64,000 nt of DNA, taken from positions 25,210 to 89,209 of IMG/VR virus record IMGVR_UViG_3300045988_092551, one strand, 5' to 3'. The notes beneath the pieces were generated by a model. It searched no databases and had not been told where the DNA came from. It saw only the letters and a list, made by a program, of their open reading frames with translations. The position numbers and the translations under genes were made by a program. Numbering within the stretch: the first letter of the stretch is position 1; each line of letters starts with the position of its first letter. Origin of the DNA: a virus. Positions 35,504-60,929 of this stretch are shown in pieces.

Positions 35504-37147
35504 ATGCAGAAAGATGTATTTTCAGGATTAAAATTGGATAACGGAGAGCCTATTTACACTCAAGAGTATATCCAATCATTAAGAGACGCCGACAAGAAGC
35601 ATCCCGACAAGCTGAAGATTATAGCTCAGCGTGGCGGTCAGGAACGCATGCTGTCTATAGACGCTGATATTAAGATAGTTGGCGGTTCGCGAGGCGGCTC
35701 AAAATCGTTCTCTTCCCTAATGGAAGTTCTGAAGGATATTAAAAATCCAGATTTTCATGCAACAATTCTTCGTAACGAAAAAGACGACTTACAGTCCTTA
35801 GTGACAGACTCTTATAAATTGTTCTCCCAATTTGGAACTTACAATAAGTCACAAAATGATATGACCTGGAACTTCGATAACGGAGGATGGCTCAAATTCT
35901 CGTACTATGCTGGAGCCTATCAGGACTTCAAGACACGATTCCAGGGTCGCCAGTATGCCTATGTCTGCATCGATGAGGGTACTCAGTGTCCATACAAGAA
36001 GTTCAAGTATCTCTTGACCAACAACCGAAATGCAGCGCATATCCGAAACCGCTTCTGGATTACCTGTAACCCGGACCCGGAATCTTGGGTGAGAAAGTTT
36101 ATCGACTGGTGGGTTGACGAGAACGGATACATCATACCGGAACGTGACGGAGTTATACGATACTGCTTCATGGACGGCGATACGCCTGACTCAATATACT
36201 GGGGTAACACGAGAGAAGAGGTGTACGAGCTGTGCAAGGGCATCATCGATAGCCTCTGGAAGGACAGCTACGAGGAACTTGGATACACAAAGCTCGAAAT
36301 GTTCATCAAGTCGGCAACATTCATCCGTGCAGATGTATCTGAGAACATCAAGCTTATCTCTACAGATGCGTCATATCTCGCCAACCTTGCCCAGCAGGAC
36401 GAGGAACAGCGCATGCGAGACCTGGAAGCTAACTGGAACTGGAAAGCTGCCGGAGATGACATGATCAAGATGGAAGACCTTGATGAAATCTACGACAACT
36501 CAGAACAAACAGGAGACGGAAAGCGCAGAGCTTCTGCCGATATCGCATTCACCGGCGGCGATAACTTCGTGATGTGGCTCTGGGAAGGATGGCACTGCAA
36601 AGACTTGGTTGTTCTGAGGCTGGACCCAAAGACTCTTGTTTCGGTAGTTGAGGCTAAGCTGAGAGAGTGGGGTGTAGAAGAATGCAACTTCACTTACGAT
36701 ATGCAGGGTATCGGTCAGTACTTCAAGGGATTTTTCAAGGATGCCGTCCCATTCAACAACCAGGCAGCACCTATCGCTCAGAGCCATCAGGAAGAGGAAG
36801 GAATCAAATACCTTTACAAGGACTTGAAATCCCAGTGTGCATTCCTGTTCTATAAGATGATAAAAGAGAAGCAGATTTCCATCGACTCAGCCCTGCTTGA
36901 AAGAAAGTATTCCGGAAACGGATTCGACAAGGTTCCTCTCAGACAGATTCTTCAGAAGGAGCGTAAGATGCTCAGACGTGACGAGAATAGCGATGATAGG
37001 GGATTCAAGCTATTACCTAAGAAGATTGCCAAGAAATATGTCGGGCACTCGCCTGACTTCTTTGAATCTTGGTTCTATGTAATGATATTCAGTTTAACAA
37101 AAAAGAAAAATAAAAAGGTAAAAGGATTATGGATGCTATCAAGGTAA
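35504..37147 (+). CDS. terL: terminase large subunit
   Basis: 547 aa. Walker A-like VGGSRGGSKS and Walker B YVCIDEGTQ. Followed by the portal gene with a 19-nt overlap. Confidence 0.85.
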   Translation: MQKDVFSGLKLDNGEPIYTQEYIQSLRDADKKHPDKLKIIAQRGGQERMLSIDADIKIVGGSRGGSKSFSSLMEVLKDIKNPDFHATILRNEKDDLQSLVTDSYKLFSQFGTYNKSQNDMTWNFDNGGWLKFSYYAGAYQDFKTRFQGRQYAYVCIDEGTQCPYKKFKYLLTNNRNAAHIRNRFWITCNPDPESWVRKFIDWWVDENGYIIPERDGVIRYCFMDGDTPDSIYWGNTREEVYELCKGIIDSLWKDSYEELGYTKLEMFIKSATFIRADVSENIKLISTDASYLANLAQQDEEQRMRDLEANWNWKAAGDDMIKMEDLDEIYDNSEQTGDGKRRASADIAFTGGDNFVMWLWEGWHCKDLVVLRLDPKTLVSVVEAKLREWGVEECNFTYDMQGIGQYFKGFFKDAVPFNNQAAPIAQSHQEEEGIKYLYKDLKSQCAFLFYKMIKEKQISIDSALLERKYSGNGFDKVPLRQILQKERKMLRRDENSDDRGFKLLPKKIAKKYVGHSPDFFESWFYVMIFSLTKKKNKKVKGLWMLSR

Positions 37148-46479: not shown

Positions 46480-46727
46480 GTCGTGAAACATTTCTGTTTG
46501 ATATAGTGTACCTAAGTAAAAGAATATTACACGATTTTCTAACTGGTTAAATGTTAAAACGTTAACATTTACTGTCTATTTAAGTGCGTATATGTAGTTA
46601 TATAGCTTATTTCCTTTATTTAGGCGTAAAGTGTTAAAACTCATAAGGTGTTATATATCAGATTGTTACGTATCTTTCGTATATTAATATTTAACATAAA
46701 ATATTTGGTTATGTCGAAAAAAAGTAG

Positions 46728-46735
46728 TATCTTTG
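46728..46735 (+). promoter_or_regulatory. -7 box TATCTTTG with TTTG at 46704-46707
   Basis: TAnnTTTG with a -33-like TTTG 20 nt upstream. About 60 nt before ATG 46795. Confidence 0.55.
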
Positions 46736-46794
46736 CAGTAGAAATAAAGAGATAGAAAGACTATCTTATAAGAACCATTTAAACAAATAAGTAT

Positions 46795-47319
46795 ATGAAA
46801 GAAGATTTAACCGTAAAAAGCGCTCAAGGTTACGAGCATACCAACACAAAGGTAGCTAGTTATGTAAGCGAGTGCAAGAGTAGTGTTACACTCTCTCAGT
46901 GTTTGGACGTACTTAACAGTTATCGTAAAAAACTGTTAAGTGAGTGCACCGACAAAGAAGTAGTAGAGGCTAAAAAAAACCTTGATGCTGCACGTGCTAA
47001 CTACAATAAGTTAGCCACAAAGTTTGTGCTTTCTGATACAGACTACTGCAATTTACAGACAGAAGTTGTAAGAAGTGCAGTGAGTGAGTATTCAAAAAAG
47101 CATAAATTGTCTAGCTTCTTTACTTGGTTTGACGCAAACGGAAAAGACGTGCAAACGACAATTATAGACAGTTTGCAGCGCTTAGGCTCTAAGTTGTGTG
47201 CATTACACCAAGCATTTGCAAGCGGAAACAAGGTTGCAAAGAAGAAGTCTGAGACTATCACGGATTTGCAGAAGCAAATTGCAGATTTGCAAGCTAAACT
47301 TGCAGCAGCGCAAAAGTAA
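46795..47319 (+). CDS. hypothetical protein, first gene of the rightward array
   Basis: 174 aa. Leader AACCATTTAAAC...GTATATG. C-terminal coiled coil. Confidence 0.6.
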   Translation: MKEDLTVKSAQGYEHTNTKVASYVSECKSSVTLSQCLDVLNSYRKKLLSECTDKEVVEAKKNLDAARANYNKLATKFVLSDTDYCNLQTEVVRSAVSEYSKKHKLSSFFTWFDANGKDVQTTIIDSLQRLGSKLCALHQAFASGNKVAKKKSETITDLQKQIADLQAKLAAAQK

Positions 47320-47326: not shown

Positions 47327-47356
47327 AGATAGGTAGCTGAAAACTACCTATCTTTT
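47327..47356 (+). terminator. rho-independent terminator-like hairpin
   Basis: AGATAGGTAG-CTGAAAA-CTACCTATCT followed by TTTT. Confidence 0.6.
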
Positions 47357-47359
47357 CCC

Positions 47360-48030
47360 CTACATTTTCCCCACTGACTATCTAGCAGTTAGCCAGTGGG
47401 AAATTTACACCGTACAAATTATGTGCGGTGCGGGTCGTCGTACCCTTATTTTTCCTATCACGTTTAGGCGTACAATTGTGGGTCAGTGCCGCATAAGGGA
47501 ACAAAACAGAGATTTTGGTATTATTCCAGAGAGAGAATTTATTCTCCCTCAGGGGATTTATTGCCAAAATTTCAGAGAGCTATCCGGCAAACGAATCTGT
47601 AGTGATACAGAAAGGCGGGCGAGAAATCCCGTCGTGGGTAGCGAGAGAGCACAGAGCCACCACGATACCGAATGAGATGAGGCACGTGGAAAGAGCGAGA
47701 GCCGTAGCTGTGCAGTTATCGAGCGAGATGACGGACGGATAAATCATAATTCATATTCTACCGGTTTGGAATTGTCCGGTCGGGCTGGTTACCCGAGAAT
47801 CAATTGTGTGTGCAATCACGATTTGCAGCGTATCAAGGCGCACACTATCCACGCTGACTGAAAGCGGTTGCTTGTCATCCGTGCGAGATTTATCTCCTCA
47901 GAAATAAACAAGCTGCTGGCAGAAGCATAAAATCTGTAGGGTGTGAGCCACGTAGTTAAGACGATAAAGATAAAACGTGGTGCAAAGATGCACATCCTGG
48001 CTAATGGGGCGGGGAGAAATCTCCGCTCTA
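47360..48030 (+). ncRNA. candidate large structured noncoding RNA (~670 nt, family unknown)
   Basis: Only short, implausible ORFs. More G+C rich by eye than the flanks. Many local helices: CCCACTG/CAGTGGG, CACCG/CGGTG, CTGTA-GTGA-TACAG, TCGGG/CCCGA, GTGTGC/GCACAC enclosing TGCAA/TTGCA, CCACGT/ACGTGG, GTGCA-AAGA-TGCAC, GCGGGGA-GAAA-TCTCCGC. Confidence 0.5.
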
Positions 48031-48060
48031 CAATTACAAACCATTTAAATATTTTAGATT

Positions 48061-48246
48061 ATGAAAGAACAGATTTTGAAGAAGATAGGAAAGACGCTTG
48101 TGCGTATTAATGTCACAAATCAGAGTGCAGAGGATGCCTACGATGAACTCGTTAACAGCAGTCCTCGCCTGTTTGGTATGCTTTCCAGTATCTACAGACT
48201 GAATGATGAAGAAGAAAGATTCGCTTGGTCTGCCGGAATCGCCTAA
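48061..48246 (+). CDS. cassette protein, hypothetical
   Basis: 61 aa. Leader AAACCATTTAAAT..AGATTATG. The stop lies in GCCTAAAAT, followed by the hairpin TCCCTACA/TGTAGGGA. Confidence 0.5.
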   Translation: MKEQILKKIGKTLVRINVTNQSAEDAYDELVNSSPRLFGMLSSIYRLNDEEERFAWSAGIA

Positions 48247-48295
48247 AATCTCCCTACACTTGTAGGGAACAATAACCAAAATTATTAGAATTATG

Positions 48296-48774
48296 AGTAC
48301 GATATCATTAGATTGCAGACTTACAGACAATATACAGCCACGTAGAATTCATGAGCTACAACGGAAAAAGACTTACCGTTGCAGTTCTAGCCTAAAAATC
48401 TGTAGCCAGTACGATAATTGTCGTGTGTGGCTACGGAACAATTACCAATAAAATTAGGATTATGACAGCGAGGCAAATCATTTATTCAAGTACGATAATT
48501 GTGCTTGGATTTATTCAGAGCGTGCCGGCATTTATCATGCTGGCGAGTACGAATATTATCGTAATTCTGCTTGGAATATTTTGGGGTATTCTGCTTGGAA
48601 TATTCTGGAGAAGTACGATAATTGGCAGATGGTTCTTCAGGGAGCTGTGGAGATCTACGCTCCGCTTGGAGAATTTCATCCTGCCTGGAGTGTGAGGAAT
48701 CTAGAAAGTACGATAATTGTGCTTGGAAACATTTAGCTAAATTCTGCTTGGAGAGATCCAGGCAGTACGATAAT
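48296..48774. repeat. cluster of AGTACGATAAT(T) and (T)CTGCTTGGA repeats
   Basis: AGTACGATA-type copies at 48296, 48408, 48489, 48546 (variant), 48612, 48707 and 48764. The 21-mer AGTACGATAATTGTGCTTGGA is exact at 48489 and 48707. TTCTGCTTGGAATATT occurs at 48566 and 48589. Extra copies at 50298 and 51429. Confidence 0.8.
48462..48695 (+). CDS. possible 77-aa hydrophobic protein (doubtful, built from DNA repeats)
   Basis: Has a leader-supported ATG. However its STII(V)LG / LLGIFW repeats are translations of DNA repeats that continue past the stop. Confidence 0.3.
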   Translation: MTARQIIYSSTIIVLGFIQSVPAFIMLASTNIIVILLGIFWGILLGIFWRSTIIGRWFFRELWRSTLRLENFILPGV

Positions 48775-48797
48775 ATAACCAACTAAATTACAGAATT

Positions 48798-48995
48798 ATG
48801 AAGAAGAATATTTTCGTGGCATTGTTTGCCGTAGTGTGTGTTGCATTAGTAGTTGTTTCAGTTACTCTGTACAATTGTCACAGAGCAAACGTGATGCTAA
48901 GAAAGACTGTTATTGCTCAAGCGAACGAGATTTCAGAGCTTAACGGCAGTTACACAGCAGAGGGAGCTACAACGTTCGTAGGTCTCAGAAAGTAG
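48798..48995 (+). CDS. cassette protein with N-terminal transmembrane helix
   Basis: 65 aa. N-terminus MKKNIFVALFAVVCVALVVVSV. Stop lies in TAGCCAAAA, followed by a 9-bp hairpin. Confidence 0.55.
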   Translation: MKKNIFVALFAVVCVALVVVSVTLYNCHRANVMLRKTVIAQANEISELNGSYTAEGATTFVGLRK

Positions 48996-49052
48996 CCAAA
49001 ACAGAGAGGAGTTTCCGCTCCTCTCTTCTATTAACCAAATTATTAGAGAAAT

Positions 49053-49382
49053 ATGGATAGAATATTAAAGCAAGATTTGAGCAAGAATGAGGTTATAGAC
49101 CTCTTGCGTGGAATGGACGCACAGGAAGTTGAGGGAAATTTCTCTGTACGTCGTGTCCTGATCAATACACAGGCGTGTGACGTATTCGGTGGAGAACCTG
49201 AGGACTCTTATCCTCTCATCCCCGGTACGTACATGGCATTGTATTACAAGAGTATTGCCGGAGACCCGTATCCGCTCTTTGAGAGAATATGTGAAAACAT
49301 AATAAATGACGAGAACAAGAGCCAGACTCTCCTGAATGGCGATGGCATTATTCTGATTTTCCTGCTCAACAAGTACGAGTAG
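49053..49382 (+). CDS. cassette protein, hypothetical
   Basis: 109 aa, bounded by the junction motifs. Confidence 0.6.
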   Translation: MDRILKQDLSKNEVIDLLRGMDAQEVEGNFSVRRVLINTQACDVFGGEPEDSYPLIPGTYMALYYKSIAGDPYPLFERICENIINDENKSQTLLNGDGIILIFLLNKYE

Positions 49383-49444
49383 CCAAAAATGTGCTCAGGC
49401 ATTTCCCTGGGCATACTATGTTAAACCATTTAAACGGAAGAATT

Positions 49445-49621
49445 ATGTTAGACAGAAAATCACAAAAGAACTTCGAACGTGCATTGCTCCACGAGATGGA
49501 GAAAATTAAAATTGCTGCACGCCAGTGGCACAACAACAATACTAAGGGCTACAGAGATTTCCGTAGCAAGGAGGCTATCTCAAAGAGTTTCTCTGAGATT
49601 GCAGTATTGTGCATGAGCTGA
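49445..49621 (+). CDS. cassette protein, hypothetical
   Basis: ORF 49391-49621 trimmed to the leader-supported ATG (GGAAGAATTATG). 58 aa. Confidence 0.5.
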   Translation: MLDRKSQKNFERALLHEMEKIKIAARQWHNNNTKGYRDFRSKEAISKSFSEIAVLCMS

Positions 49622-49670
49622 AATGTGCGTGGCGGTTGTCACGCATACTATTCACCAAAAATTATAGATT

Positions 49671-49964
49671 ATGATAGATGAAGAATACAAGAAGAATGTA
49701 GAGTACATGAACTCTGTCATCCTGCCACGATTGCAGGAGACTCAGAGAGAAGTATTGAAAAATCCATCAAGGCTCACTCTTGACATCAGCGTGAGAAACG
49801 ACAACGGCGAAGGGTATATCAGTTCTTTTGCCTGTGTCAGAAATAGCATGGGAGGAGAAATAACGGATACCTGTTATCCACGTTTCATCTGCGCAGACAG
49901 CAAAGAGGAGATGGACGAGCTCTTCAACGAGCTTAAAGAGTTCATCAAGAAGTACTCAGCCTGA
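49671..49964 (+). CDS. cassette protein, hypothetical
   Basis: 97 aa, bounded by the junction motifs. Confidence 0.6.
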   Translation: MIDEEYKKNVEYMNSVILPRLQETQREVLKNPSRLTLDISVRNDNGEGYISSFACVRNSMGGEITDTCYPRFICADSKEEMDELFNELKEFIKKYSA

Positions 49965-50014
49965 AAATTGAGGGAGTTTTATCTCCCTCTCCCACAAACC
50001 AAAAATGTAGAATT

Positions 50015-50284
50015 ATGAGTAAATGGGTACAATTCTATCACAAGATTAATAAGTTTGACCTTGTGAACATGAGATTTACAGAGGATTTCAGTATCGTGGA
50101 AATGACTGGTATGGATTCTATCTTGCCAGTTGACGGCAGATTTAACCTGTCATCCATACGAGCAGAGATACAGAAGAAAATCGAGAGCATGAAGAAAATC
50201 GAGAGTTTCGACCCTTGTGCGTTCTCCATCCTCACCGGCAGTTCTATTCTGTGTGCTTCAGAAAGTCCGGTGTACAATCTCTGA
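50015..50284 (+). CDS. cassette protein, hypothetical
   Basis: 89 aa, bounded by the junction motifs. Confidence 0.55.
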   Translation: MSKWVQFYHKINKFDLVNMRFTEDFSIVEMTGMDSILPVDGRFNLSSIRAEIQKKIESMKKIESFDPCAFSILTGSSILCASESPVYNL

Positions 50285-50342
50285 GCCAGAACTGGGCAGT
50301 ACGATAATGTGCTGCCTGCTATTAACCAAAACAGAATATATT

Positions 50343-50888
50343 ATGAGTAAGAAAAAAGTTGCAGGTCTTGAGAGACCTTACTCTCCTCGCAAATTAGGAG
50401 AGTTATTGTGTGAATACATCGTGCAGGGTGGATTTGAGGAGAGCGCAAAGCTTGATTATTTCTCCCCAAGCGATGATGATGTGACCGAAATTAAGAAAGA
50501 GACTTTTGACGTACTCTCTATTACTGAGTTCGGTTCAAATGAGGGCATTTACACGTCTTTCTACATTGATTATCCTGGAGAAAAGCGCATACGTCTGATG
50601 TGCGCCAAAACTTTGGGCGAGTCAAAGGAAGATTATGTAAATATGCATATAATGGGAGCTAACATTTGCTACTCTTTTATCAAATTCGTAAATAGAAATC
50701 GGGACAGCTTTATATGGTACGGTTACTTTGTCTATTATGCAATAGATAAAGGAGAGAAAAAATATTGCTGGTGTCATTCTATCGAGAGCGTTTATAATAA
50801 CGCTGACGACATTCTACAGAAGCATCCTAATGCGAGAGTATACTACATTGATTGTCAAACTCGGAAGAAGTATGGGTACAACTTCTAG
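50343..50888 (+). CDS. cassette protein, hypothetical
   Basis: ORF 50217-50888 trimmed to the leader-supported ATG. 181 aa. Confidence 0.6.
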   Translation: MSKKKVAGLERPYSPRKLGELLCEYIVQGGFEESAKLDYFSPSDDDVTEIKKETFDVLSITEFGSNEGIYTSFYIDYPGEKRIRLMCAKTLGESKEDYVNMHIMGANICYSFIKFVNRNRDSFIWYGYFVYYAIDKGEKKYCWCHSIESVYNNADDILQKHPNARVYYIDCQTRKKYGYNF

Positions 50889-50947
50889 CCAAAATGCGGG
50901 GCACATCCTGTGTCCTGCTTCTATTATTAACCAATCAAATTAGAATT

Positions 50948-51124
50948 ATGACAGACGGAGACAGAAGGTTCCTTGCCAGGCTCGTAGCGAGCCACAAGGC
51001 AGTTATCAGCGAGGAGTGCGCGAGAAAGAAGCTCGACAAGAGCGAGTATTTCAGACGTACGGCACGAGTGGACAGAAAAGCTCAGGAAATCGAGCGTGCC
51101 TGTATGCGTCCTCGCAAATTCTAG
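50948..51124 (+). CDS. cassette protein, hypothetical
   Basis: Trimmed to the leader-supported ATG. 58 aa, basic and helical. Confidence 0.5.
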   Translation: MTDGDRRFLARLVASHKAVISEECARKKLDKSEYFRRTARVDRKAQEIERACMRPRKF

Positions 51125-51186
51125 CCAACATTCTGTGCGGTCTATCTGCACAGAAACCATGTTTAACCATTTTAATTAGTAGAATT

Positions 51187-51402
51187 ATGGAACGATATTC
51201 ATGTAAGCAGCTGAAATCGCTTGTAGCAAGCGGTGTGGCAAAGGATGTAACCTACGCAGACAGTAGAAGTGAGATTCCTGAGAGTTATACTCAGATCGGG
51301 TATGCAGCAGGAATCTACGGTTGTAACGGAATGTTATTGAAGGGCAAGAGCGGACAGCTATACGCCGTGACAGGCAGAACATCTGCCATCTACATTTTTT
51401 AG
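51187..51402 (+). CDS. cassette protein, hypothetical
   Basis: Trimmed to the leader-supported ATG. 71 aa (MERYSCKQLKSLV...). Confidence 0.55.
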   Translation: MERYSCKQLKSLVASGVAKDVTYADSRSEIPESYTQIGYAAGIYGCNGMLLKGKSGQLYAVTGRTSAIYIF

Positions 51403-51457
51403 CCTAAAATCTCTCCATTCGCTTGGAGAGTACGATTATTAACTAAATATTAGAATT

Positions 51458-51805
51458 ATGACAACGGATTACTACACAGCCGTACACTGGCTAAAAAGTG
51501 CGTTCATCCTCTGTAACGAGATTGTAGAGAATGACGAATCAGTAATTGAAAACATCGAGTATCCAGAGTGGGCAAATGGCGATGAAGAAGAAAGGGACAG
51601 AATCGAGATATTTCAGTGGTTCCTCACTAACATGAGCGAAGAGGATAAGGAATGGATGCAGAAGAATTTCCCTGATCTTATCTTCTCTTACTCTGACAAG
51701 CTTGACTTGTGGATTCTTTGCGTAGATCATTTCGGAACGATGTGGAAGGGAGTCTCAACGACTACCAACTGCGAAAATGCGGCAAAGGCTAGCCAGCTGC
51801 CGTAG
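51458..51805 (+). CDS. cassette protein, hypothetical (acidic)
   Basis: 115 aa, bounded by the junction motifs. Confidence 0.6.
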   Translation: MTTDYYTAVHWLKSAFILCNEIVENDESVIENIEYPEWANGDEEERDRIEIFQWFLTNMSEEDKEWMQKNFPDLIFSYSDKLDLWILCVDHFGTMWKGVSTTTNCENAAKASQLP

Positions 51806-51862
51806 CCAAACCAATCCTCACTCTCACGGGTGGGGATTTCTATTAACCAATACAGATTGAAT

Positions 51863-52018
51863 ATGATTAAAATTGAGATTACTAGAGCCGGTATGGGTGA
51901 GAAATGCCCATATCCGAAGTTCAGCAAATTGCTGGCAAAAGGCTACATAATGTGCCATCGCTGCAAGTATTGTGATGAAATTATCAGCGAGACAGAAATA
52001 ATGTGTAATTATAATTAA
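51863..52018 (+). CDS. small Cys-rich cassette protein
   Basis: Trimmed to the leader-supported ATG. 51 aa with CHRCKYC. Confidence 0.45.
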   Translation: MIKIEITRAGMGEKCPYPKFSKLLAKGYIMCHRCKYCDEIISETEIMCNYN

Positions 52019-52026
52019 TTCGCCTT

Positions 52027-52251
52027 ATGAAAGAGATCTATATTTTATACAAATGTGACAGCTGGCACTCCTCAAATAGTATGGATGTGGTATTTGTAGG
52101 AAGTTCTGTAGAAAAATGCTGTTGGGCGGCGCATTGGAAAGGCGCGACTAACGAGCAGGTAAGACAGCTGAGAGATATTAGGCAGTCGCAGTGTACGAGC
52201 AATCGAGACTACGAGTTTCAGATAGATCACTGGAATATCGACAAGCTCTAA
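52027..52251 (+). CDS. cassette protein, hypothetical
   Basis: 74 aa. Shares a cassette with the previous gene, with no junction between them. Confidence 0.5.
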   Translation: MKEIYILYKCDSWHSSNSMDVVFVGSSVEKCCWAAHWKGATNEQVRQLRDIRQSQCTSNRDYEFQIDHWNIDKL

Positions 52252-52314
52252 GCCAAACATTTCCCAATTCTGTAGCAGGAATTGGGATTTCTATTAACCA
52301 AAGATTACAGAATT

Positions 52315-52554
52315 ATGAGTGACTTAGAGAAAATTTTGAATGACGATTTGCTGAAGTGTGAAATCGTAGAGTCTGTAGAGAATGCAGCAAGACGTGTGGA
52401 TCTTATCAAGTGGACGCACGACGGTTTATTTTCCGTTGCCGACTTACGCAAGGACACCGGAAAGCTTGAAATATCAGAAGTTCCAGAGACGGACGAGCTT
52501 GAAGCGTACAAGTATTTCTACAAAACCTATTGGAGTTTTGTTGTTTCTTCCTAA
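52315..52554 (+). CDS. cassette protein, hypothetical
   Basis: Trimmed to the leader-supported ATG. 79 aa. Confidence 0.55.
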   Translation: MSDLEKILNDDLLKCEIVESVENAARRVDLIKWTHDGLFSVADLRKDTGKLEISEVPETDELEAYKYFYKTYWSFVVSS

Positions 52555-52606
52555 AACTCCCCACGATAATGTGGGGAACCATTATAAACCATTTAAAAAT
52601 AGAATT

Positions 52607-53134
52607 ATGGAAAAGAATATTGTAGGAGAAGTTCTTAATTGCAAGGGTGAGGTTTTGGAGAAGATTGCTGATTATATCGGCACAAAAAGCTTTGCCACGG
52701 TAATCGAGAATCTCTATCGTGAGTGTCTTGAGAAGTTTGATGACGCAGAAGATTTGGAGGAATTTATATCTGATTTTGATGGAAGAAATATCCAGTCCAT
52801 GGCATGGGATTTCACTCTTGAAGTGAACAAGGAGATGAAGAAATATCTCCATATGGATTCTCAGAACATGAATGGTAATTTCGCCAATCTGCGCAACGAT
52901 TACCCTAGACATGTCACCGGTGTATTTTGGGCATCAGACTACGACGGCGACGATTACTATGACTTGTTTCCTCAGACGGTTGCCAGACTCGATGCCGCAG
53001 AAGACAGCGAGCAGGCGAACAAGGACAGAGCGTACCTCGAAGAATGGTATTTCAAAGCCTTCGGTACGTACAACATCAAGTACAATTTCTCGAACGAACT
53101 TGAAGAGATTCACTCTATGATGAAGGAAGCCTAA
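52607..53134 (+). CDS. cassette protein, hypothetical (acidic)
   Basis: ORF 52382-53134 trimmed to the leader-supported ATG. 175 aa. Confidence 0.6.
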   Translation: MEKNIVGEVLNCKGEVLEKIADYIGTKSFATVIENLYRECLEKFDDAEDLEEFISDFDGRNIQSMAWDFTLEVNKEMKKYLHMDSQNMNGNFANLRNDYPRHVTGVFWASDYDGDDYYDLFPQTVARLDAAEDSEQANKDRAYLEEWYFKAFGTYNIKYNFSNELEEIHSMMKEA

Positions 53135-53189
53135 CAATATCCCCTAGCATGGGGATATTCTATGTTAAACCATTTAAATGATATTAGAT

Positions 53190-54011
53190 ATGAGTTACGA
53201 ATTTGCAAAGAAGGAAATCGGTGATTACAGAATCACCATTTACCAGGATGAGGATGCCGAATGCCCTTGCAAAGGATGGGATTTGGTGGGAGTTTACTTC
53301 TGGGACTATTCCGACAACGGATACAATAGAGGTCTGTCTCGTGGTTGCAGCAGCGAAGTTGACGCTAAAAATGCAGAGGATGCTTTGAAAGAGCTTGTCT
53401 GCAAATATGTGTCACAAAAGAAGATTATCGACTACATCAATAGCGAAAATGTCGATAGCTTCCGTATGCGCTATGACAAGAGCGAGCACATGTGGCATCT
53501 TGAGAATCTGTACAATGGCGAGTGGTACTACCACGAAGAGTTCTGTCCGAGCGACTTGAAGAGATTCGACTATAGAGAAGAACTTTGCGATATCCTCGAA
53601 GAGGACGATTTCACGTATCTTCTGCATGACTGCAAGAATATTGCATTCTACGAGTGGTCCTCTACGGGCTACTGCCAGGGAGATTATGTTAGTGGATATG
53701 CCTACTGCGACAAGAAGCGCTTCTCCAAGTATTGTGACACGAACACAAAGAACTGGAGAAAGCGAGCCTTGGACTTATTTGAGGATGAGACTAAGTGCAT
53801 AGGTCTTTGGATGTGGGGCGATGTCAAGGGATTCGTCTTGGAAAAGAAAGTCCACTACAAGAAAGTCTTCACGGAAATCGGTAGAGAGCCGGAGGACGAC
53901 TATGAGTGGGAGCAGATTGATTCCCGCTGGGGAGAGTACTACGAGGACTCTGACGAGCTGATTAAAGACGCTCTCGAAGAGAATGGAATCAAACTAAAAG
54001 AAACAGCCTAA
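53190..54011 (+). CDS. cassette protein, hypothetical
   Basis: 273 aa, rich in Cys, Trp and Tyr. Leader ..TTAGATATG. Confidence 0.6.
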   Translation: MSYEFAKKEIGDYRITIYQDEDAECPCKGWDLVGVYFWDYSDNGYNRGLSRGCSSEVDAKNAEDALKELVCKYVSQKKIIDYINSENVDSFRMRYDKSEHMWHLENLYNGEWYYHEEFCPSDLKRFDYREELCDILEEDDFTYLLHDCKNIAFYEWSSTGYCQGDYVSGYAYCDKKRFSKYCDTNTKNWRKRALDLFEDETKCIGLWMWGDVKGFVLEKKVHYKKVFTEIGREPEDDYEWEQIDSRWGEYYEDSDELIKDALEENGIKLKETA

Positions 54012-54060
54012 CAAGGGGAGCTTGCATGCTCCTCTTCTATTAACCAAATTACAAAGAATT

Positions 54061-54402
54061 ATGAAAGCAAGACTTTATCACGACACAAGAAAGAAGTTCC
54101 GTGACTATATTGACGCCTGGAGTATATACTTTCCTTATCCTAAGTGGATGAGAAAGGAGAATCCTGGAGTGTACGGATGCTTTATCAGCTGCAAGCCGAC
54201 AGAAAGCGGTATGATAAGGTGTATCGTTGACTATGATGAGTTTATTCCGGGTCTTTGCAGCAGACCTTATCTCGGCAAGAGGGTAGACGTGAAGACAACC
54301 CCAAAAGCATTTCAGAAGATTTTCCGTCATCAGGAGAGGTTGTGGAACAACGCAATCACCAAGAATACGGACGAGGCGTGGGAAGCATGGAACAGAGCCT
54401 AA
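54061..54402 (+). CDS. cassette protein, hypothetical
   Basis: Trimmed to the leader-supported ATG. 113 aa. Confidence 0.55.
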   Translation: MKARLYHDTRKKFRDYIDAWSIYFPYPKWMRKENPGVYGCFISCKPTESGMIRCIVDYDEFIPGLCSRPYLGKRVDVKTTPKAFQKIFRHQERLWNNAITKNTDEAWEAWNRA

Positions 54403-54449
54403 AATTGGTAGCCAGTTGGCTACCTACCATTAACTAAATAAATAGAATT

Positions 54450-54710
54450 ATGAAAAAGGGTATAACAATTTCAGAGAGGGGTAACAAAGTTATCTACAGA
54501 CTGGGCAGGCGTATTGTGTGCTACCGAGTGGGCTACAGGGTTTATTTCGGAAAGCCCTCTGACGCTACACATGATACGTTTGATGCCTTGTCCGAGAATA
54601 TTGCACACGAGAGATGCATTGAGATTTGTGAGCGCAGAATATCGGCAGAGACGAAATACAGCAATCCTGTCGCATACAACGCTCACAGAGTGCTGAATGC
54701 ATTAGCCTAA
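54450..54710 (+). CDS. cassette protein, hypothetical
   Basis: 86 aa, bounded by the junction motifs. Confidence 0.55.
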   Translation: MKKGITISERGNKVIYRLGRRIVCYRVGYRVYFGKPSDATHDTFDALSENIAHERCIEICERRISAETKYSNPVAYNAHRVLNALA

Positions 54711-54756
54711 AGATAGCCTCCGGGCTATCACTATAACCAATTAAACAAAGAGAATT

Positions 54757-55017
54757 ATGACACAAGTTAATTTAGGAACTCGCACGGCAAATTTACGTGC
54801 AGCTTATAGCGATTTGAAAGATGGATATACCATTATCGTTGGAAAACTAAAGATGTGGATATACACTTGTAAAAGATGCGGTCCGTCGTATGGCAAGGAT
54901 TATATAGCCTGCGATCATTATGGTGGGCAGTGGGCAATAGGAGTAAATTTCAAGGATTTTACAGACCAAATGCGTAAATTTGGCGAAGGAAAACTTGCTT
55001 ACAACAAAGAGTGGTAG
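54757..55017 (+). CDS. cassette protein, hypothetical
   Basis: 86 aa, bounded by the junction motifs. Confidence 0.55.
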   Translation: MTQVNLGTRTANLRAAYSDLKDGYTIIVGKLKMWIYTCKRCGPSYGKDYIACDHYGGQWAIGVNFKDFTDQMRKFGEGKLAYNKEW

Positions 55018-55075
55018 CCTAAAAACGGAGGGAGTAATCCCTCTGACATTATTAACCAATAAATTATTAAGAATT

Positions 55076-55483
55076 ATGGATAAAAAAGAAATGTGGAAAG
55101 TACTTGGACGTGACGATTACGCACACAAGTCTCAAGAACTGAAAAAAAAGTGCGAGGAACTGGCGAAAGCTATATGCGATAAGCTCATTGAGCTTGACAT
55201 GACAGAAATCTTCATCCCTCGCTGTGGTATTACCTTCAGCGTTATTACCGTGCAAATAAGTTGTGTTAAACGCATTCTTCTTGCGCTAAAGAGTGGCACC
55301 ATTTACTATTTGTTGCAAGAGTTTGGTATATGCGACATACATGCTGGTGACCTTAATGTGAAGGTTGGTCGAGTAGTAGATGCACTTAGTTTTGTTACTC
55401 ACTTGGACGAGATATTACAAGAAATATCGAAGATTGAGGACAAAGAAGTCGCAGGCATCGAAGCTGCTCTCAAGAGACTCTAA
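55076..55483 (+). CDS. cassette protein, hypothetical
   Basis: Trimmed to the leader-supported ATG. 135 aa. Confidence 0.55.
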   Translation: MDKKEMWKVLGRDDYAHKSQELKKKCEELAKAICDKLIELDMTEIFIPRCGITFSVITVQISCVKRILLALKSGTIYYLLQEFGICDIHAGDLNVKVGRVVDALSFVTHLDEILQEISKIEDKEVAGIEAALKRL

Positions 55484-55493
55484 CATCTATCAT

Positions 55494-55535
55494 CCGTGAG
55501 CGACAGGCGCACATCGGGTTCGAGACCCGACACGG
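55494..55535 (+). other. tRNA T-arm/acceptor-like minihelix (not a tRNA)
   Basis: Reads CCGTG-15 nt-TCGGG-TTCGAGA-CCCGA-CACGG. The inner hairpin matches a T-arm (5-bp stem, 7-nt TTCGAGA loop, closing G-C pair). No D or anticodon arms. Confidence 0.4.
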
Positions 55536-55563
55536 AACAATATTAACCAAAATTACAAGAATT

Positions 55564-55794
55564 ATGAAGAGATATTATGTATCAGTCACAGAGACTTTAA
55601 ACAAGATTGTCAGCGTCGATGCCAAGAGTGAGAAAGATGCGCTTGAACAAGTACAAACAGCCTACAATGATTCTGTCATCGTTCTCGATTCCAGCAATTT
55701 TGTAAACGAAGAAATAGAGCTTGACTCTAATCAGGAGTTATATGCTGACAACGAAAAAGAGCAGGGAGGAGATGTTTATCAGCACATCGACTAG
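55564..55794 (+). CDS. small DpnD/PcfM-like protein (paralog A), upstream of the RT
   Basis: 76 aa. MKRYYVSVTETLNKIVSVDAKSEKDALEQV aligns with MRRKYRVGIVETSNGFVDVEASSEEEARKKA of ORF 58442-58612. Confidence 0.55.
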   Translation: MKRYYVSVTETLNKIVSVDAKSEKDALEQVQTAYNDSVIVLDSSNFVNEEIELDSNQELYADNEKEQGGDVYQHID

Positions 55795-55842
55795 CCAAAT
55801 GGGGAGAGCAATCTCCCTACCAATAACCAAAACACAAGAATT

Positions 55843-57108
55843 ATGAATGAAGACAGAATCCTAGAGATGTTCTTCGAGAAAGCCAGATGGCAGTATGCCA
55901 TTGAAAAAGGCTTGTTCAAGGACATGAACAAAGCAGTAATGTATCAGCTTACAACGCCGGAGGCTCGTCTGGCTATGTATCAGAGGATCAAGAGCGGCAA
56001 TTACAAGATAATGCCGCCACACACAGCGAAGATTCCGAAAGACAACGGAGATTTCCGTACGGTCTATGTGAATGAACCTGTAGACAGAATCCTACTGAGC
56101 ATAGCAAACGACCTCTTGTTTGAGCTGATGCCAGAGATGGTGCATCCGCGCTGTACGTCATACCAGAAAGGTATCGGCTGCGGTCGTGTGGTGCAAGATG
56201 TGTCTCGGATAATATACTCAGCAGAGGGAAAAATCATCGGATGGAAAGGTGACTTCTCCAAGTACTTCGATTCCGTGCCTATTCGGTTCATCGACTGGGC
56301 ATTTGACAAGGTAGAGGAGAAGTACGGAAAGTCTGCGCTGATAGACGTCATTCGTGACTACTATCACACGGATATCTATTTCGATGAAGACAACAACCTC
56401 TGTGAGAAGTATCAGTCCCTCAAGCAGGGATGCTCTGTTGCTGCATGGCTGGCTGATGTCATTCTCTATCATCTTGACGACAAGCTATCTAAGCTTAACG
56501 GATATTACGTCCGCTATTCAGATGATACGCTGTTTGTCGGTGAAGACTATGAGAAAGCCATGGATATCATGAAGAGCGAGCTGGAGATGATGCAGATGAA
56601 GCTCAATCCGAAGAAGGTTGAGTATCTTGACGCTAATCACTGGTTCAAGTTCCTCGGATATTCCATCAAGGGTCACAATATCTCTCTGTCGTCCACTCGT
56701 ATCAAGACTTTCCAAAAGGAGATTGAGAAGAGGACGATAAAGAAACGTGACACCACGATGACGAAAGCCATCAATGCAGTAAACAGGTATCTCTACAAGG
56801 GGTACTGCGATTATTCCTGGGCTACTCAGGTTCTTCCGGTCATAAACGTGAAAGAGGACATCGACAAGCTCAACGCATTTGTCATGGACTGCATCCGTGC
56901 GGTCAAGACAGGCAAGAGAAAGGTCGGTGGTCTCGGATACGTGAAGACTCAGGCTGTAGGTTGCATAGACCGAGGTCGTGGCAGGAACGTGAAAGCCAAC
57001 AGGGGTAAGACAGAGAGCGAAATCAAGGGGTATCTATCAATCGGTTGCGCACAGAATGCCTTGCGAACGAGCAGGGCAGCGTACAACACATTGGTGAATA
57101 CTCTGTAG
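55843..57108 (+). CDS. reverse transcriptase (prokaryotic, unclassified lineage)
   Basis: 421 aa. RT motifs: AKIPKDNGDFRTVYV, DRILLSIAN, SYQKGIG, GDFSKYFDSVP, LKQGCSVAAWLADVIL, YVRYSDDTLFVG (YSDD at 56515-56526), KLNPKKV, FKFLGYSI. Confidence 0.85.
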   Translation: MNEDRILEMFFEKARWQYAIEKGLFKDMNKAVMYQLTTPEARLAMYQRIKSGNYKIMPPHTAKIPKDNGDFRTVYVNEPVDRILLSIANDLLFELMPEMVHPRCTSYQKGIGCGRVVQDVSRIIYSAEGKIIGWKGDFSKYFDSVPIRFIDWAFDKVEEKYGKSALIDVIRDYYHTDIYFDEDNNLCEKYQSLKQGCSVAAWLADVILYHLDDKLSKLNGYYVRYSDDTLFVGEDYEKAMDIMKSELEMMQMKLNPKKVEYLDANHWFKFLGYSIKGHNISLSSTRIKTFQKEIEKRTIKKRDTTMTKAINAVNRYLYKGYCDYSWATQVLPVINVKEDIDKLNAFVMDCIRAVKTGKRKVGGLGYVKTQAVGCIDRGRGRNVKANRGKTESEIKGYLSIGCAQNALRTSRAAYNTLVNTL

Positions 57109-58415
57109 ATGAGCATCCTAGCGCAATGATTTGCCGGAATGAAGACACAAGGTTTTAAATATCCCGGTTGCGGAGTGCATGGACCTATCTCTTAATAAGA
57201 GATGGTCCTACGCTCGTCCTAAACCGGACATTATCGAACTTATAAAGCCATGCGCAGTATCTTCTGACCGGCATACTCTGTAACCGAGCACACGGACGTG
57301 GGAGAAGGACGGGCGAAGATTCAGGCGATGCCTCGTATAACATCATCTGAACATCCGACAATGCATGGATGTTCGTATGACGAACAAGGCGTAGCTCATC
57401 AACGAAGTACAGAAATGTGCCAGTCCGTATGACTTCCACTGGTGGCGCACACTACCAATCCCTGACGGATGGCTGAAGTTTATGCAACAGGTCTCTTAAC
57501 CAGAGTAGTTGATCCTGAGCGTCTTCGTATACTACTACGACCTCTGGATCATCTATTCTGGCGAATCCTGTGTCAAATCAGAAACATAAAGTATTGTGCC
57601 GAGCCATCGGTCAGTGAATTACCTTAGCACGAGGGTAGTCTTCAGAGGAGAGTTAATTCACGAGTGATGTTGTGCTCGCCGGCTAATGCTGGGAATCCCC
57701 AGCGTCATCCGGCGGGTTAACATCCCTCGAATCAAGCTGTTATAGCTACGTGTCACGCTCTCAGATAAAGACAACGTTATTGCCAAACGAGGTACACGAG
57801 GAGGTATCGGTTTATTCAACCCGCCTAGTATCAACGCGATATGTCTGGTAATACCAGCAATCTCGCGTATCGGCAAGCGGGTTAAATCATCAGCCTATAG
57901 TAAGGCAACAGACCTATGAGTGTACCTACAACAACCAAAGTGAATTGCATCACGACTTATCAAGAGTATGAGGTTTAATGTCACGTGAGTGGAATACCTG
58001 CGACGGCCGATATCTCCGCCGTCGCAGGTATCCAATCCACGGGACCTAATCGTGAACATATATCCATGCAACATAATACATGAGATAAGTCATGCGCATT
58101 GCAGCGATGTCTGGCAAGTTCTGAGTGTTCATCGAGCGTTTCATTGATTCTGAAGCCAAGGATGTGGAAGCATTCGCTTCCTGGAGGTTGGCTTCATAAC
58201 AATGCCACGCCCTTAATCGAAAACTTAAAGCAATGCAACGTATCAGGTTGAGTCAGACTAGGTTATTGCGAGCCGAAATGGTGTGCAAGGAGAATAGATT
58301 GTACAATACGGTATCAATCATCCTGAAGATCCAGGTGGTTACCTGGATCTGTCAGGACTTAGATACAGTATTTATCAAGACCTTATAGTTACGCAACAGA
58401 TTCTCTGAGCGCACT
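57109..58415 (+). ncRNA. candidate RT-associated structured noncoding RNA (~1.3 kb)
   Basis: No junction separates the RT stop from this region. There is no credible ORF: stops of all three kinds occur in every frame I read. It is G+C-richer by eye. Nested helices lie at 57181-57208, 57349-57374, 57677-57714, 57818-57883, 57991-58033, 58151-58196 and 58321-58357. Confidence 0.55.
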
Positions 58416-58441
58416 CCTATTAACCAATACTTTTTAGAATT

Positions 58442-58612
58442 ATGAGAAGAAAATATCGTGTAGGAATTGTAGAAACGTCGAACGGATTTGTGGACGTTGA
58501 GGCAAGTAGCGAAGAGGAAGCTAGAAAAAAGGCGTATGATGCATGGGCAAATGGTTATGCGGTTATGTGCGGAGATATAGATTGCAAGACCGCAGAAGTA
58601 TGTCCAGGCTAA
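58442..58612 (+). CDS. small DpnD/PcfM-like protein (paralog B; below ORF-track cutoff)
   Basis: Hand translation gives MRRKYRVGIVETSNGFVDVEASSEEEARKKAYDAWANGYAVMCGDIDCKTAEVCPG. Leader-supported ATG. The stop lies in GGCTAAAAA, followed by a hairpin. Confidence 0.5.
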   Translation: MRRKYRVGIVETSNGFVDVEASSEEEARKKAYDAWANGYAVMCGDIDCKTAEVCPG

Positions 58613-58660
58613 AAAATCCCACGCAATAGTGGGATTCTTATTAACCAATATTTTGAGAAT

Positions 58661-59113
58661 ATGACATACGACGAGATTATCAATGAAGTTGAGAATGGTG
58701 CTAAGTTCACCATCAACTTCCAGAAGAGAACATGCAGAGTGAACGGCAAGGTAGTAATGTCCGAGGAGGACAAGCCGAAGGACACGCCTTACCTTACACC
58801 TGAGGTAGTGTTTGTAGGCATCGAGCAGAGATATGCAGCGTACAAGCACTCTGTGCCGTCTGAGCGCTCCGAATCACATCGCCACTACTACTTCAAGGCT
58901 TTACCTGAGAAAGAACTCTCAGACGAAGATATGATGTACGGAGAGCGACGTGAAGTGGCGAGGTGCAAGCTGGAGCTGTACGTTCTTATGCAGCTACTCA
59001 GAGGCAACCTCTGGTGGGACAACTCATGGGGAACATGGTTCTGGTGTTCCAAGAACGACAAGGACCTGATTATCCTCAGAGACTGGATTGAGCCAAACAA
59101 GGGTGGGGCGTAA
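58661..59113 (+). CDS. cassette protein, hypothetical
   Basis: 150 aa with leader ..GAGAATATG. Confidence 0.6.
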   Translation: MTYDEIINEVENGAKFTINFQKRTCRVNGKVVMSEEDKPKDTPYLTPEVVFVGIEQRYAAYKHSVPSERSESHRHYYFKALPEKELSDEDMMYGERREVARCKLELYVLMQLLRGNLWWDNSWGTWFWCSKNDKDLIILRDWIEPNKGGA

Positions 59114-59170
59114 GCCTCATCCACTAGAGTTAAATAAATTTTTAGTAACCAATTTAAAATAATTAGAATT

Positions 59171-60208: not shown

Positions 60209-60214
60209 TCTCTA

Positions 60215-60375
60215 GCAAGATGTAAGGTTCGCCGCCTGAAGAATGGTGGCTCGGCAGCAATTCACAAGAGCTTCTGCAACGAGAGGATCTCCTCCAGTTA
60301 CTACTGGAGATAGTCCTTCGAGCTAAAGCTCTCCAGATCAAACTACTAAAGTAAGGCGCAAGCCGGGAGCCATTC
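60215..60375 (+). ncRNA. candidate small structured RNA (~160 nt) occupying a cassette slot
   Basis: No ORF. Closing helix GAATGG..CTC..GGC (60241-60255) pairs with GCC..GAG..CCATTC (60362-60375). Inner hairpins are CTCCAG-TTACTA-CTGGAG (60292-60309) and GAGC-TAAA-GCTC (60320-60331). TAGCCAAAA plus a junction hairpin follow. Confidence 0.45.
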
Positions 60376-60438
60376 TAGCCAAAAGTCGGTTACTGATTCG
60401 GTAACCGATTCAATGTCTAACCAATAAAATGAAGAATT

Positions 60439-60831
60439 ATGAAAGAGATTAATGTAGACACAAGAAAGTATATTAAGGCTCCTGTTGACGGAAAGAATGT
60501 TGTTGAAGAATCACTTCTAGACGCCATCTTTGACGATTCGCAATATCTTAGCAATAAGTTCTCCATGGGATTTATCGGTGGTGTACCTACAATGATTGAG
60601 TATAACGGGAACTATTTATCTATCAAGAAGTTACGTCCGTGTAGTACATCAGAGTGGGGCAGAGAGATTGTTAAACGACTAACAGGCGAGTCCAAAAATA
60701 ACATATATTGTTACGAGACAAAGCAGTATCTCGACGAACGCCAGGCAGAGCCTTTAATCTATACATTCTCTCTGAGTACAGATTACCTTACAGTAAGATT
60801 TCACTACAATGTAAAAGTAGATGAAGATTAG
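60439..60831 (+). CDS. cassette protein, hypothetical
   Basis: 130 aa, bounded by the junction motifs. Confidence 0.6.
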   Translation: MKEINVDTRKYIKAPVDGKNVVEESLLDAIFDDSQYLSNKFSMGFIGGVPTMIEYNGNYLSIKKLRPCSTSEWGREIVKRLTGESKNNIYCYETKQYLDERQAEPLIYTFSLSTDYLTVRFHYNVKVDED

Positions 60832-60896
60832 CCAAACATGTCAGTCGTTAACAGCGGCTGACTCCTTATCATAACTAGATTTTGTTTAAATGGTTC

Positions 60897-60929
60897 AAAC
60901 CGGTCTGTCGTGAGACACGCCGGTTTTTT
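60897..60929 (+). terminator. terminator-like hairpin with T6
   Basis: AAACCGG...CCGGTTT with TTTTTT. It is the only junction in the array with a long U tract. Confidence 0.45.

Follow-up and report, generated by a model that had tools for sequence, protein, structure and literature searches.

The locus and its coding content

The DNA analysed here, hereafter the window, is a 64,000-nucleotide (nt) stretch of the IMG/VR virus record IMGVR_UViG_3300045988_092551 (positions 25,210 to 89,209 of the record); all positions given below are those of the window. The subject is a slot on its plus strand, 47357-48030, flanked by a terminator-like hairpin on one side and a standard junction hairpin on the other, downstream of a gene that will be named hereafter gene 1. 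On balance, comparison of the slot with its homologues favours the view that it is a real and new plus-strand structured RNA gene, about 650 nt long and made up of several domains, which would be independent of the UG27 reverse transcriptase (RT) system encoded by the same phage. The features upstream of the slot are the following, with lengths in amino acids (aa) or base pairs (bp).

46704-46735, plus strand: Bacteroidota-type promoter, TTTG-N20-TAtcTTTG
46795-47319, plus strand: gene 1, encoding a 174-aa helical protein, always the upstream neighbour of the RNA
47327-47353, plus strand: terminator-like hairpin between gene 1 and the RNA, 10 bp, AGATAGGTAG/CTACCTATCT, followed by TTTT (U-run to 47357)

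The original prediction, made from the letters of the window and a list of open reading frames (ORFs), had described a strong terminator-like hairpin after the first gene, about 670 nt without plausible ORFs, and a junction hairpin (GCGGGGA-GAAA-TCTCCGC) with a leader at the end of the slot. All three are present: the terminator-like hairpin and its T-run follow gene 1, which ends in a TAA stop codon, the longest ORF of the slot is only 84 aa, and the junction hairpin lies at 48009-48026, ahead of an ATG at 48061. The slot had also been described as richer in G+C than its surroundings, and its G+C content is indeed 0.47-0.51 across 47450-47900, whereas the spacer ahead of gene 1 has 0.24-0.29 and the downstream DNA about 0.38-0.42.

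No ORF on either strand is shared across 52 homologous loci. Close variants of the slot show no codon periodicity (variable columns by codon position: 12, 15, 16 and 17, 12, 18), and indels of 1-2 nt are common between them. The concern raised at the outset that the region might be a decayed pseudogene found no backing, in that neither protein homology nor a conserved reading frame could be detected. Frame +2 is interrupted by just two TGA stops between 47337 and 47930 (594 nt). Recoding of stop codons was considered and rejected: very large genes present in the window (1,339, 2,101 and 2,398 aa) are uninterrupted under the standard code (code 11), and therefore recoding is not in use; the recoded frame would also be broken by the 1-2 nt indels of close variants. 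A 55-aa ORF on the minus strand, starting inside the conserved block A4 described below, was likewise discarded, as it meets a stop after 10 codons in the majority allele. In one relative a small ORF is inserted between gene 1 and the RNA (L021, 4520-4740), and the gene downstream of the RNA varies among loci, with at least four alternatives.

Distribution and allelic mosaic

Homologous loci were gathered through gene 1 homologues in IMG/VR. All 52 loci obtained in this way carry an ORF-poor slot of 690-954 nt that is homologous to the window region, and the slot follows a gene 1 homologue in all of the approximately 170 related loci examined, which cover three phage clades and Segatella copri genomes. 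Gene 1 homologues precede the RNA in all three clades, with protein identity falling to 20-22%. In the two clades most distant from the window (L171/L182-L187 and L180/L181/L188) the RNA lies directly after the gene 1 homologue and is detected by a covariance model, R2, described below (E values of 9e-30 and 3e-19). An IMG/VR search with the gene 1 product of L171 returned the same contig only, and two protein clusters led to the third clade.

A search pattern joining two conserved blocks, from the A3 loop to A4 (AATGAGATGAG-N45-75-AATTCATATTC), matched at least 119 IMG/VR viral contigs. Among GTDB genomes it matched seven stretches, five of which are this phage in Segatella copri/Prevotella assemblies, the other two being chance matches. 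One of the five is the complete chromosome of S. copri HDD04 (L173, NZ_CP152484.1). The possibility, raised with the original prediction, that the region might not be conserved in related phages is thus contradicted by its presence in every related phage examined.

Aligned with one another, the slots form a mosaic: between conserved blocks lie modules, each represented by a few widely differing alleles that combine freely. At least four alleles were found for the 5′ domain, two each for the modules S1 (72 or 43 nt), S2 (113 or 132 nt) and S3 (59 or 55 nt), and at least eight, 240-380 nt in length, for the 3′ domain, the most variable part. The window itself carries a minority combination of alleles, 'aAA'. 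These sequence comparisons show the peripheral modules behaving as several exchangeable alleles that recombine between phages.

Predicted architecture of the RNA

Secondary structure was derived from RNAalifold predictions within alleles and from comparison between alleles and clades. The predicted architecture shown by these comparisons consists of three 5′ hairpins, a central domain, the A4 block, and a 3′ domain closed by a long-range helix. Its elements are listed below.

47370-47445, plus strand: 5′ domain, with hairpins H1 (47370-47400), H2 (47408-47430) and H3 (47432-47445)
47444-47455, plus strand: conserved block A1, CCUUAUUUUUCC
47451-56/47496-501, plus strand: helix P2, enclosing hairpins P2a (47460-71) and P2b (47477-81/47489-93)
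47509-47573, plus strand: long interrupted hairpin, made up of P3 (47509-20/47562-73), P4′ (47523-27/47553-57) and P4 (47529-37/47542-50)
47528-47556, plus strand: conserved block A2
47579-85/47636-42, plus strand: P5 three-way junction, with P5a (47596-47611, GNRA loop) and P5b (47614-47633)
47649-54/47708-13, plus strand: helix P6, enclosing P7 (47660-69/47681-89)
47670-47680, plus strand: A3, invariant 11-nt loop GAAUGAGAUGA, presented by P7
47715-47732, plus strand: hairpin P8, GUUAUC-GAGCGA-GAUGAC
47741-47760, plus strand: A4, 20-nt AU-rich block AAAUCAUAAUUCAUAUUCUA
47750-47947, plus strand: 3′ domain, with P9, P10 (47761-79), P11 (47781-95), P12 and further helices
47750-61/47936-47, plus strand: P9, long-range helix with four G·U pairs, closing the 3′ domain
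47948-47980 and 47980-47993, plus strand: terminal hairpins P14 and P15, conserved in 61 unique sequences with a few one-sided changes
47996-48026, plus strand: 3′ junction module, CCUGGCUAA motif and hairpin GCGGGGA-GAAA-UCUCCGC

In the 5′ domain, H2 occurs as five unrelated sequences, each of which forms a helix of 8-9 bp; its arms include CACCGUACA/UGUGCGGUG, CUCCAGGUU/AACUUGGAG, CACCAGAU/AUUUGGUG and CCCAAAUU/AAUUUGGG. The adjoining block A1 is identical in all 43 unique sequences among the first 52 main-clade loci; four single-base variants appear in the larger locus set, and in L181 the block is altered to UCUAUAUUUUCC. P2b is found as UGUGG/CCGCA, UGCGG/CUGCA, UGCAG/CUGCA or UGUAG/CUACA, and in most loci the whole P2 module is replaced by a shorter 'b' allele (CCCACAC/GUGUGGG), the helix of which reads CCCACGU/ACGUGGG in L181.

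The central helices vary in a similar manner. P3 covaries over three clades (UUUUGGUA/UGCCAAAA, UUUCUCAA/UUGGGAAA and UUUUCGCA/UGCGAAAA), and the P4 stem, which contains an internal A·C mismatch, is wholly replaced in L171 and L181. P5 takes the forms GCUAUCC/GGGUAGC, GUAUCUC/GAGAUAC and GCUCCUC/GAGGAGC, and alternatives to P8 are UCAUC/GAUGA, UCACA/UGUGA and CGGCAG/CUGCCG. Several small helices had already been picked out by eye in the original prediction and reappear in this structure: CTGTA-GTGA-TACAG (47597-47610) is kept in variants as CCUGUA-GCGA-UACAGG; the nested pairs correspond to P12 (GTGTGTGC/GCGCACAC, 47806-13/47838-45), which is maintained with UA/UG/CG covariation; and GTGCA-AAGA-TGCAC (47980-47993) is likewise retained in variants.

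The most strictly conserved elements are A3 and A4. No allele or clade of the three departs from the A3 loop sequence, even with a neighbouring protein of only about 20% identity, while the stem beneath the loop differs entirely between the A, B and L181 versions (stem forms CCACG..CC/GG..CGUGG, GUG..CGUC/GACG..CAC and CGUU/GACG). A4 is invariant in every allele class inspected and in the three clades, with 11 of its 20 bases fixed by the search pattern itself. Each 3′-domain allele offers a different segment that is complementary to part of A4. At the 3′ end, the junction hairpin is also found as GCGGUGA/UCACCGC and GGGCGGAGA/UUUCCGCCC, among other variants, and the junction module (47996-48026), which is of the generic kind found ahead of every gene of the array, is the probable 3′ boundary of the RNA. 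Two further features of the central region may be recorded: the A3 loop (47672-47680) reads GA-AUG-AGA-UGA, a start-Arg-stop mini-ORF with two AUGA motifs, and the P8 region (47717-47737) looks as if it were a local duplication of the P7 loop region, to which it is 76% identical over 21 nt.

Covariation and strand

Relative to shuffled sequences, the region folds with z = −3.8 on the plus strand and z = −4.1 on the minus strand. Folding energy alone therefore proves little, since the minus strand folds as well, and the proof is comparative. A plain MAFFT alignment with one fixed structure was abandoned, as it placed H2 in two registers, in favour of covariance-model alignments. Two models were built, R1 for the 5′ domain (80 distinct sequences) and R2 for P5-P8 of the B allele together with L171.

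In the R1 alignment 88% of the cells are paired, and 17 of the 25 pairs changed on both sides. Column shuffles gave 11.8±1.4 doubly changed pairs (none of 500 reached the observed value), and controls with slid partners gave 0-7. This result is an underestimate, because 22 type-1 H2 sequences are out of register. With R2, 99.2% of the cells are paired and 11 of the 51 pairs are doubly changed, versus 1.1±0.9 in shuffles (0/500) and 0-2 in the slid-partner controls. The A-type sequence of the window aligns end-to-end to the B-type R2 model at 47579-47731 (E 0.005), an interval over which BLAST gave no alignment of A-type to B-type sequences. The comparative alignments thus answer the doubt voiced earlier that the region might show no covariation, and together with the helix replacements described above they show, on sequence evidence, that the helices are maintained by compensatory change and whole-helix swaps.

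Strand could be read from the mismatch spectrum. In helix cells the ratio of G·U to A·C is 223:51 in the R1 alignment and 72:3 in the R2 alignment. G·U pairs would be mismatches on the minus strand, and this therefore argues for a plus-strand RNA rather than for DNA or an antisense transcript.

Some points weigh against the case made by these figures. Both alignments, R1 and R2, were made to fit the structure, a single divergent lineage (L171) supplies most of the double changes in R2, and the shuffle controls overstate significance because the sequences are related and recombining. The original prediction of a large, ornate and functional noncoding RNA draws support from conservation, covariation and the absence of coding capacity.

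Comparison with known RNA families

A scan of the whole window and of 12 loci with divergent alleles gave no match at the gathering thresholds of Rfam 15. The scan covered GOLLD, ROOL, raiA and HEARO together with 4,200 other families, also including OLE, group I and II introns, RNase P, transfer-messenger RNA (tmRNA) and ribozymes. Relaxing the threshold to E≤10 on the region yielded scattered sub-threshold noise, the best match being uup with 22 bits against a threshold of 36.8, and none of these matches recurred in the other alleles (12-19 divergent alleles). ARAGORN reported neither a transfer RNA (tRNA) nor a tmRNA. The earlier impression that the sequence does not match GOLLD or ROOL is thus upheld by the wider Rfam search.

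GOLLD and ROOL are large ornate phage and prophage RNAs that form nanocages seen by cryo-electron microscopy (PMC12286853). The slot RNA resembles them in being several hundred nt long, multi-domain, heavily base-paired, encoded by phages or prophages and not bound to one downstream gene. It differs from them in that no sequence or structure match to either model was found even at E≤10, in that the hosts are those of Bacteroidota phages and not Bacillota, in that there are no neighbouring tRNA genes, and in that its domains are shuffled as alleles. Any kinship would accordingly be an analogy of size and setting only. No published description of such an RNA in Bacteroidota, Prevotella or Segatella phages was found in the literature searched. 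We rate the slot RNA as a new RNA class, that is, one outside Rfam 15 and with no description in the literature searched.

Promoter and junction modules of the early gene array

Within the right arm of the window, the promoter at 46704-46735 alone matches TTTG-N17-23-TAnnTTTG on the plus strand, and is likely to be the start of a transcription unit comprising gene 1 and the RNA. A 45-nt segment around it (46700-46744) is 89-93% identical to two porcine Microvirus records (MT135418 and MT135341), a match that may reflect a shared Bacteroidota promoter.

Downstream of the slot, approximately 30 plus-strand genes (48027-63000) are each preceded by a junction module made up of AGCC(U)AAAA, a hairpin, UAUUAACCAA, a gap of 8-12 nt and AGAAUUAUG. 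The AGCC(T)AAAA part often contains a stop codon. The junction element TATTAACCAA (then AGAATTATG) has 22 matches versus 4.9 expected, and GAATTATGA occurs 15 times on the plus strand. The module may act as a phage-specific promoter, in processing or as a translation signal, and could also serve as a recombination module.

Possible functions of the RNA

The A4 block contains UCAUAAUUC (47744-52), the exact antisense of the early-gene start motif GAAUUAUGA. In the right arm there are 15 sense copies of this 9-mer at gene starts and one antisense copy on the plus strand, which is the one in the RNA. Predicted duplexes of A4 with the 30 start regions have a mean energy of −9.2 kcal/mol versus −3.9±1.1 kcal/mol for shuffled A4 (0/300 as low); 28 of the 30 start regions reach ≤ −8 kcal/mol, and the corresponding value for minus-strand gene starts is −5.6 kcal/mol. 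When the whole 674-nt RNA was scored against the start regions, the best 20-mers were those of A4. The start motif persists in the distant clades.

A possible, tentatively favoured role for the slot RNA would thus be the control of early-gene translation via A4. The RNA would be made within the first transcript from the host-type promoter at 46704-46735, would be delimited or stabilised by the flanking hairpins, and would act through its invariant unpaired elements. A4 (UCAUAAUUC) may pair with the GAAUUAUGA translation-start motif of about 30 early genes, or compete for a factor acting there, and the RNA could thereby set the level or the timing of translation of the early array.

Precedents of a kind exist in the antisense immunity RNAs C4 of phages P1 and P7 and CI of satellite P4, which are about 70-80 nt long and act on translation-start or leader sequences. 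Like them, the slot RNA comes at the head of its operon and has a segment that is complementary to start or leader sites located downstream in that operon; it likewise belongs to a temperate phage. C4 and CI are, however, about one tenth the size of the conserved structured unit described here (about 650 nt), and the complementary block is invariant in the slot RNA and therefore cannot set hetero-immunity.

A number of points tell against translational control through A4. A terminator-like hairpin with a U-run lies between the promoter and the RNA, and co-transcription is thus an assumption. The match to the start motif is post hoc, consists of nine bases within an AU-rich block, and lies partly inside helix P9 (at 47750-52). 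Antisense control would not need 650 nt of ornate structure, and the mechanism leaves the extreme allelic diversity of the peripheral domains unexplained. No partner of the A3 loop was found inside the molecule: neither A1-A3 nor A3-A4 duplexes score better than shuffles. On this ground a pseudoknot joining A1 to the A3 loop was rejected, the change of A1 in L181 being in addition uncompensated. Pairing between A3 and A4 was set aside as not significant relative to shuffles, and no complementary targets of A1 or A3 were found elsewhere in the window.

We consider it doubtful, if conceivable, that the RNA is a modular 'machine', in which an invariant core (A3 and A4) would recognise a shared start signal or a host factor, and in which the peripheral domains would be swapped by diversifying selection, as might arise in an arms race with RNA-targeting defences of the host. 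If true, such a machine would be a master regulator or a decoy RNA without counterpart among known phage RNAs.

Similarly improbable on present grounds is that the RNA scaffolds a ribonucleoprotein whose protein partner is encoded by gene 1 or by the host, A3 and A4 then being putative protein-binding sites and the swappable domains either spacers or diversifying parts. The adjacency of gene 1 and the RNA in three clades, despite the 20-22% identity of the protein, speaks for this, as do the presence of invariant elements without an RNA partner inside the molecule and a size and multi-domain architecture typical of ribonucleoprotein or self-assembling RNAs. Yet gene 1 has no recognisable RNA-binding domain or confident fold: no match was found in Pfam, NCBIfam or the PDB, PHROGs and PADLOC were likewise uninformative, and the AlphaFold2 model is all-helical but poor (predicted local distance difference test score of 66). 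The ORF that separates gene 1 from the RNA in L021 also counts against a fixed partnership, and the two may be neighbours simply because both are expressed early. Self-assembly of the kind seen in GOLLD and ROOL may be listed as a further candidate, by analogy with those RNAs.

It is unlikely that the RNA works in cis from the beginning of the long rightward operon, either in processing or stability or in processive antitermination in the manner of put and nut, by which host RNA polymerase starting from a single promoter would read through about 30 junction hairpins. The single host-type promoter for 17 kb of plus-strand genes and the hairpin at every junction would fit such a role. The slot position, after the first gene of an early operon, mirrors that of nutR and putR in lambda and HK022. 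HK022 put, lambda nut and Bacillus EAR are all placed upstream of many hairpins in the same way, but these elements are 60-120 nt long, that is, about 10-fold smaller than the slot RNA (about 650 nt), and have no similarity to it. Moreover, most junction hairpins lack U-tracts, the TATTAACCAA motif of the junctions may itself serve as a promoter, and whole-domain allele shuffling would be odd for an element that binds RNA polymerase.

Relation to the UG27 reverse transcriptase array

The RT encoded at 55843-57108 is a full-length UG27 enzyme (PADLOC RT_UG27, E 1e-227). UG27 systems of gut phages have been described (Mestre et al. 2022, PMC9226505). A recent preprint (Minerva, September 2026, 10.64898/2026.09.22.753630) reports that the long intergenic region adjacent to the RT is an array of structured units of about 135, 149 or 167 nt, the central hairpins of which are copied into short cDNAs, and that additional units occur in nearby intergenic regions at some loci, some units being missed by the published model. 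In the window the array occupies 57109-58415, where a motif recurs at intervals of 163, 167 and 158 nt. Unit starts lie at 57884, 58047, 58214 and 58372, and R3, a model built from a local unit, adds 57729 and 57575. The length of the array ranges from 1,180 to 1,635 nt among close relatives, which is consistent with gain and loss of units. Downstream of the array, ORFs of 56, 150 and 345 aa (58442-60208) are candidate accessory proteins, the 56-aa one matching DpnD/PcfM.

The slot RNA and the RT-linked array are found in the same genomes and belong to one rightward array of genes; both are structured, with stems poorly conserved in primary sequence, and polymorphic in length between close relatives. 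They differ in that the slot RNA has no repeated unit of 135-167 nt and carries invariant unique blocks. The original prediction had seen no similarity between the slot and 57109-58415, and this was borne out in comparisons with R2, nhmmer and R3. The slot shows no periodicity of about 150 nt and no repeated motif, only short two-copy matches without a period. Searched with an nhmmer profile of 11 local units, arrays gave 67 matches, but about 130 alleles of the RNA gave none at E≤10. R3 recovers other divergent array units (E 6e-8, 5e-4 and 0.17); on the slot it scored 8.4 bits (E 0.65 at 47435-47570) and in 12 diverse loci it found nothing, these tests being made with models of local units rather than the published ones. 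Conversely, R2 has no match in the UG27 array.

An RT lies 4.4-8.2 kb downstream of the RNA in all 31 main-clade loci with enough sequence; the RNA of the window is about 8 kb upstream of its RT, with about 20 genes between them, and is thus not RT-adjacent. The RNA slots of L186 and L187 are identical over 702 of 702 positions, but only L187 has the RT, none being present within 10 kb downstream of the slot in L186. L188 retains the RNA together with only a 70-aa RT remnant. The unit tests being negative and the RNA being unchanged without the RT, we conclude that the slot RNA is an entity separate from the UG27 array, even a remote link between them in evolution or function being very unlikely.

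It is therefore very unlikely that the slot holds a divergent, non-canonical set of template RNAs for the phage UG27 RT, even though RT and array are encoded by the same phage, the RT is present in 31/31 main-clade loci, extra and model-missed units are reported (10.64898/2026.09.22.753630), and the P3/P4′/P4 hairpin resembles an interrupted 'main hairpin' and accounts for the weak R3 score. Besides the lack of periodicity, the absence of any significant profile or covariance-model match, the identity of the RNA in L186 and the distance from the RT, the core of the slot RNA is invariant whereas UG27 units are highly diverse.

Some side observations concern these loci. L186 and L187 (ENA contigs of 80.7 and 82.4 kb) are near-identical phages that differ in whether they carry the whole cassette of RT and array (15.8-19.6 kb of each locus), the position of which is occupied in L186 by other small genes and an integrase-like gene. 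In L188, 14472-15485 encodes a 337-aa protein whose first 70 residues are 66% identical to the UG27 RT and which has no RVT domain; it may be a remnant or a fusion.

The least probable reading, which we all but dismiss, is that the hairpins act in DNA (replication origin, recombination hot spot or packaging signal) or that the slot is a decayed or recoded protein gene: the primase gene 1.4 kb away, the adjoining AT-rich spacer, the equal folding of the minus strand, the two TGA stops of frame +2 over 594 nt and the frequent recombination seen in the allele mosaic would agree with one or the other, but the excess of G·U over A·C fits only a plus-strand RNA, long-range helices and the pseudoknot-forming pair (P3) covary, and a protein gene is contradicted by the tolerated 1-2 nt indels, the missing codon periodicity and conserved ORF, and the absence of recoding.

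The phage and its host

The phage encodes an integrase, a tape-measure protein (2,100 aa), a portal protein and a large terminase. It is temperate, since it has a tyrosine integrase at the end of the right arm (62720-63763) and a copy lies inside the complete chromosome of S. copri HDD04, which means that a cultured lysogen exists. From these sequence features it is classed as a temperate siphovirus-like phage of Segatella (Prevotella) copri of the human gut. A search of GenBank phages gave no close relatives: the primase shares only 27% identity with that of a Bacteroides LoVEphage, and gene 1 has no match there. Two giant structural proteins of 1,338 and 2,397 aa, encoded on the minus strand (10816-14835 and 15187-22383), contain collagen triple-helix repeats. 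The large terminase of L186, L187 and L188, encoded by the first gene of each locus, is 923 aa long and has a LAGLIDADG domain that looks like an intein-type insertion; that of the window (35504-37147) is 547 aa long and does not have LAGLIDADG.

Significance

To our knowledge, the noncoding RNAs of bacteria or phages that exceed 500 nt and have a complex conserved structure make up fewer than about a dozen classes, and each of those we know of is biochemically unusual, being a ribozyme, a nanocage or a membrane ribonucleoprotein. The separation of the slot RNA from the UG27 array in the same genome prevents mis-annotation of the one as part of the other. The natural shuffling of alleles around a fixed core amounts to a ready mutational data set for structure determination. 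The candidate RNA is carried by hundreds of assembled phage genomes and by at least one cultured, fully sequenced strain (HDD04) of S. copri, a species that is among the most abundant and medically discussed bacteria of the human gut.

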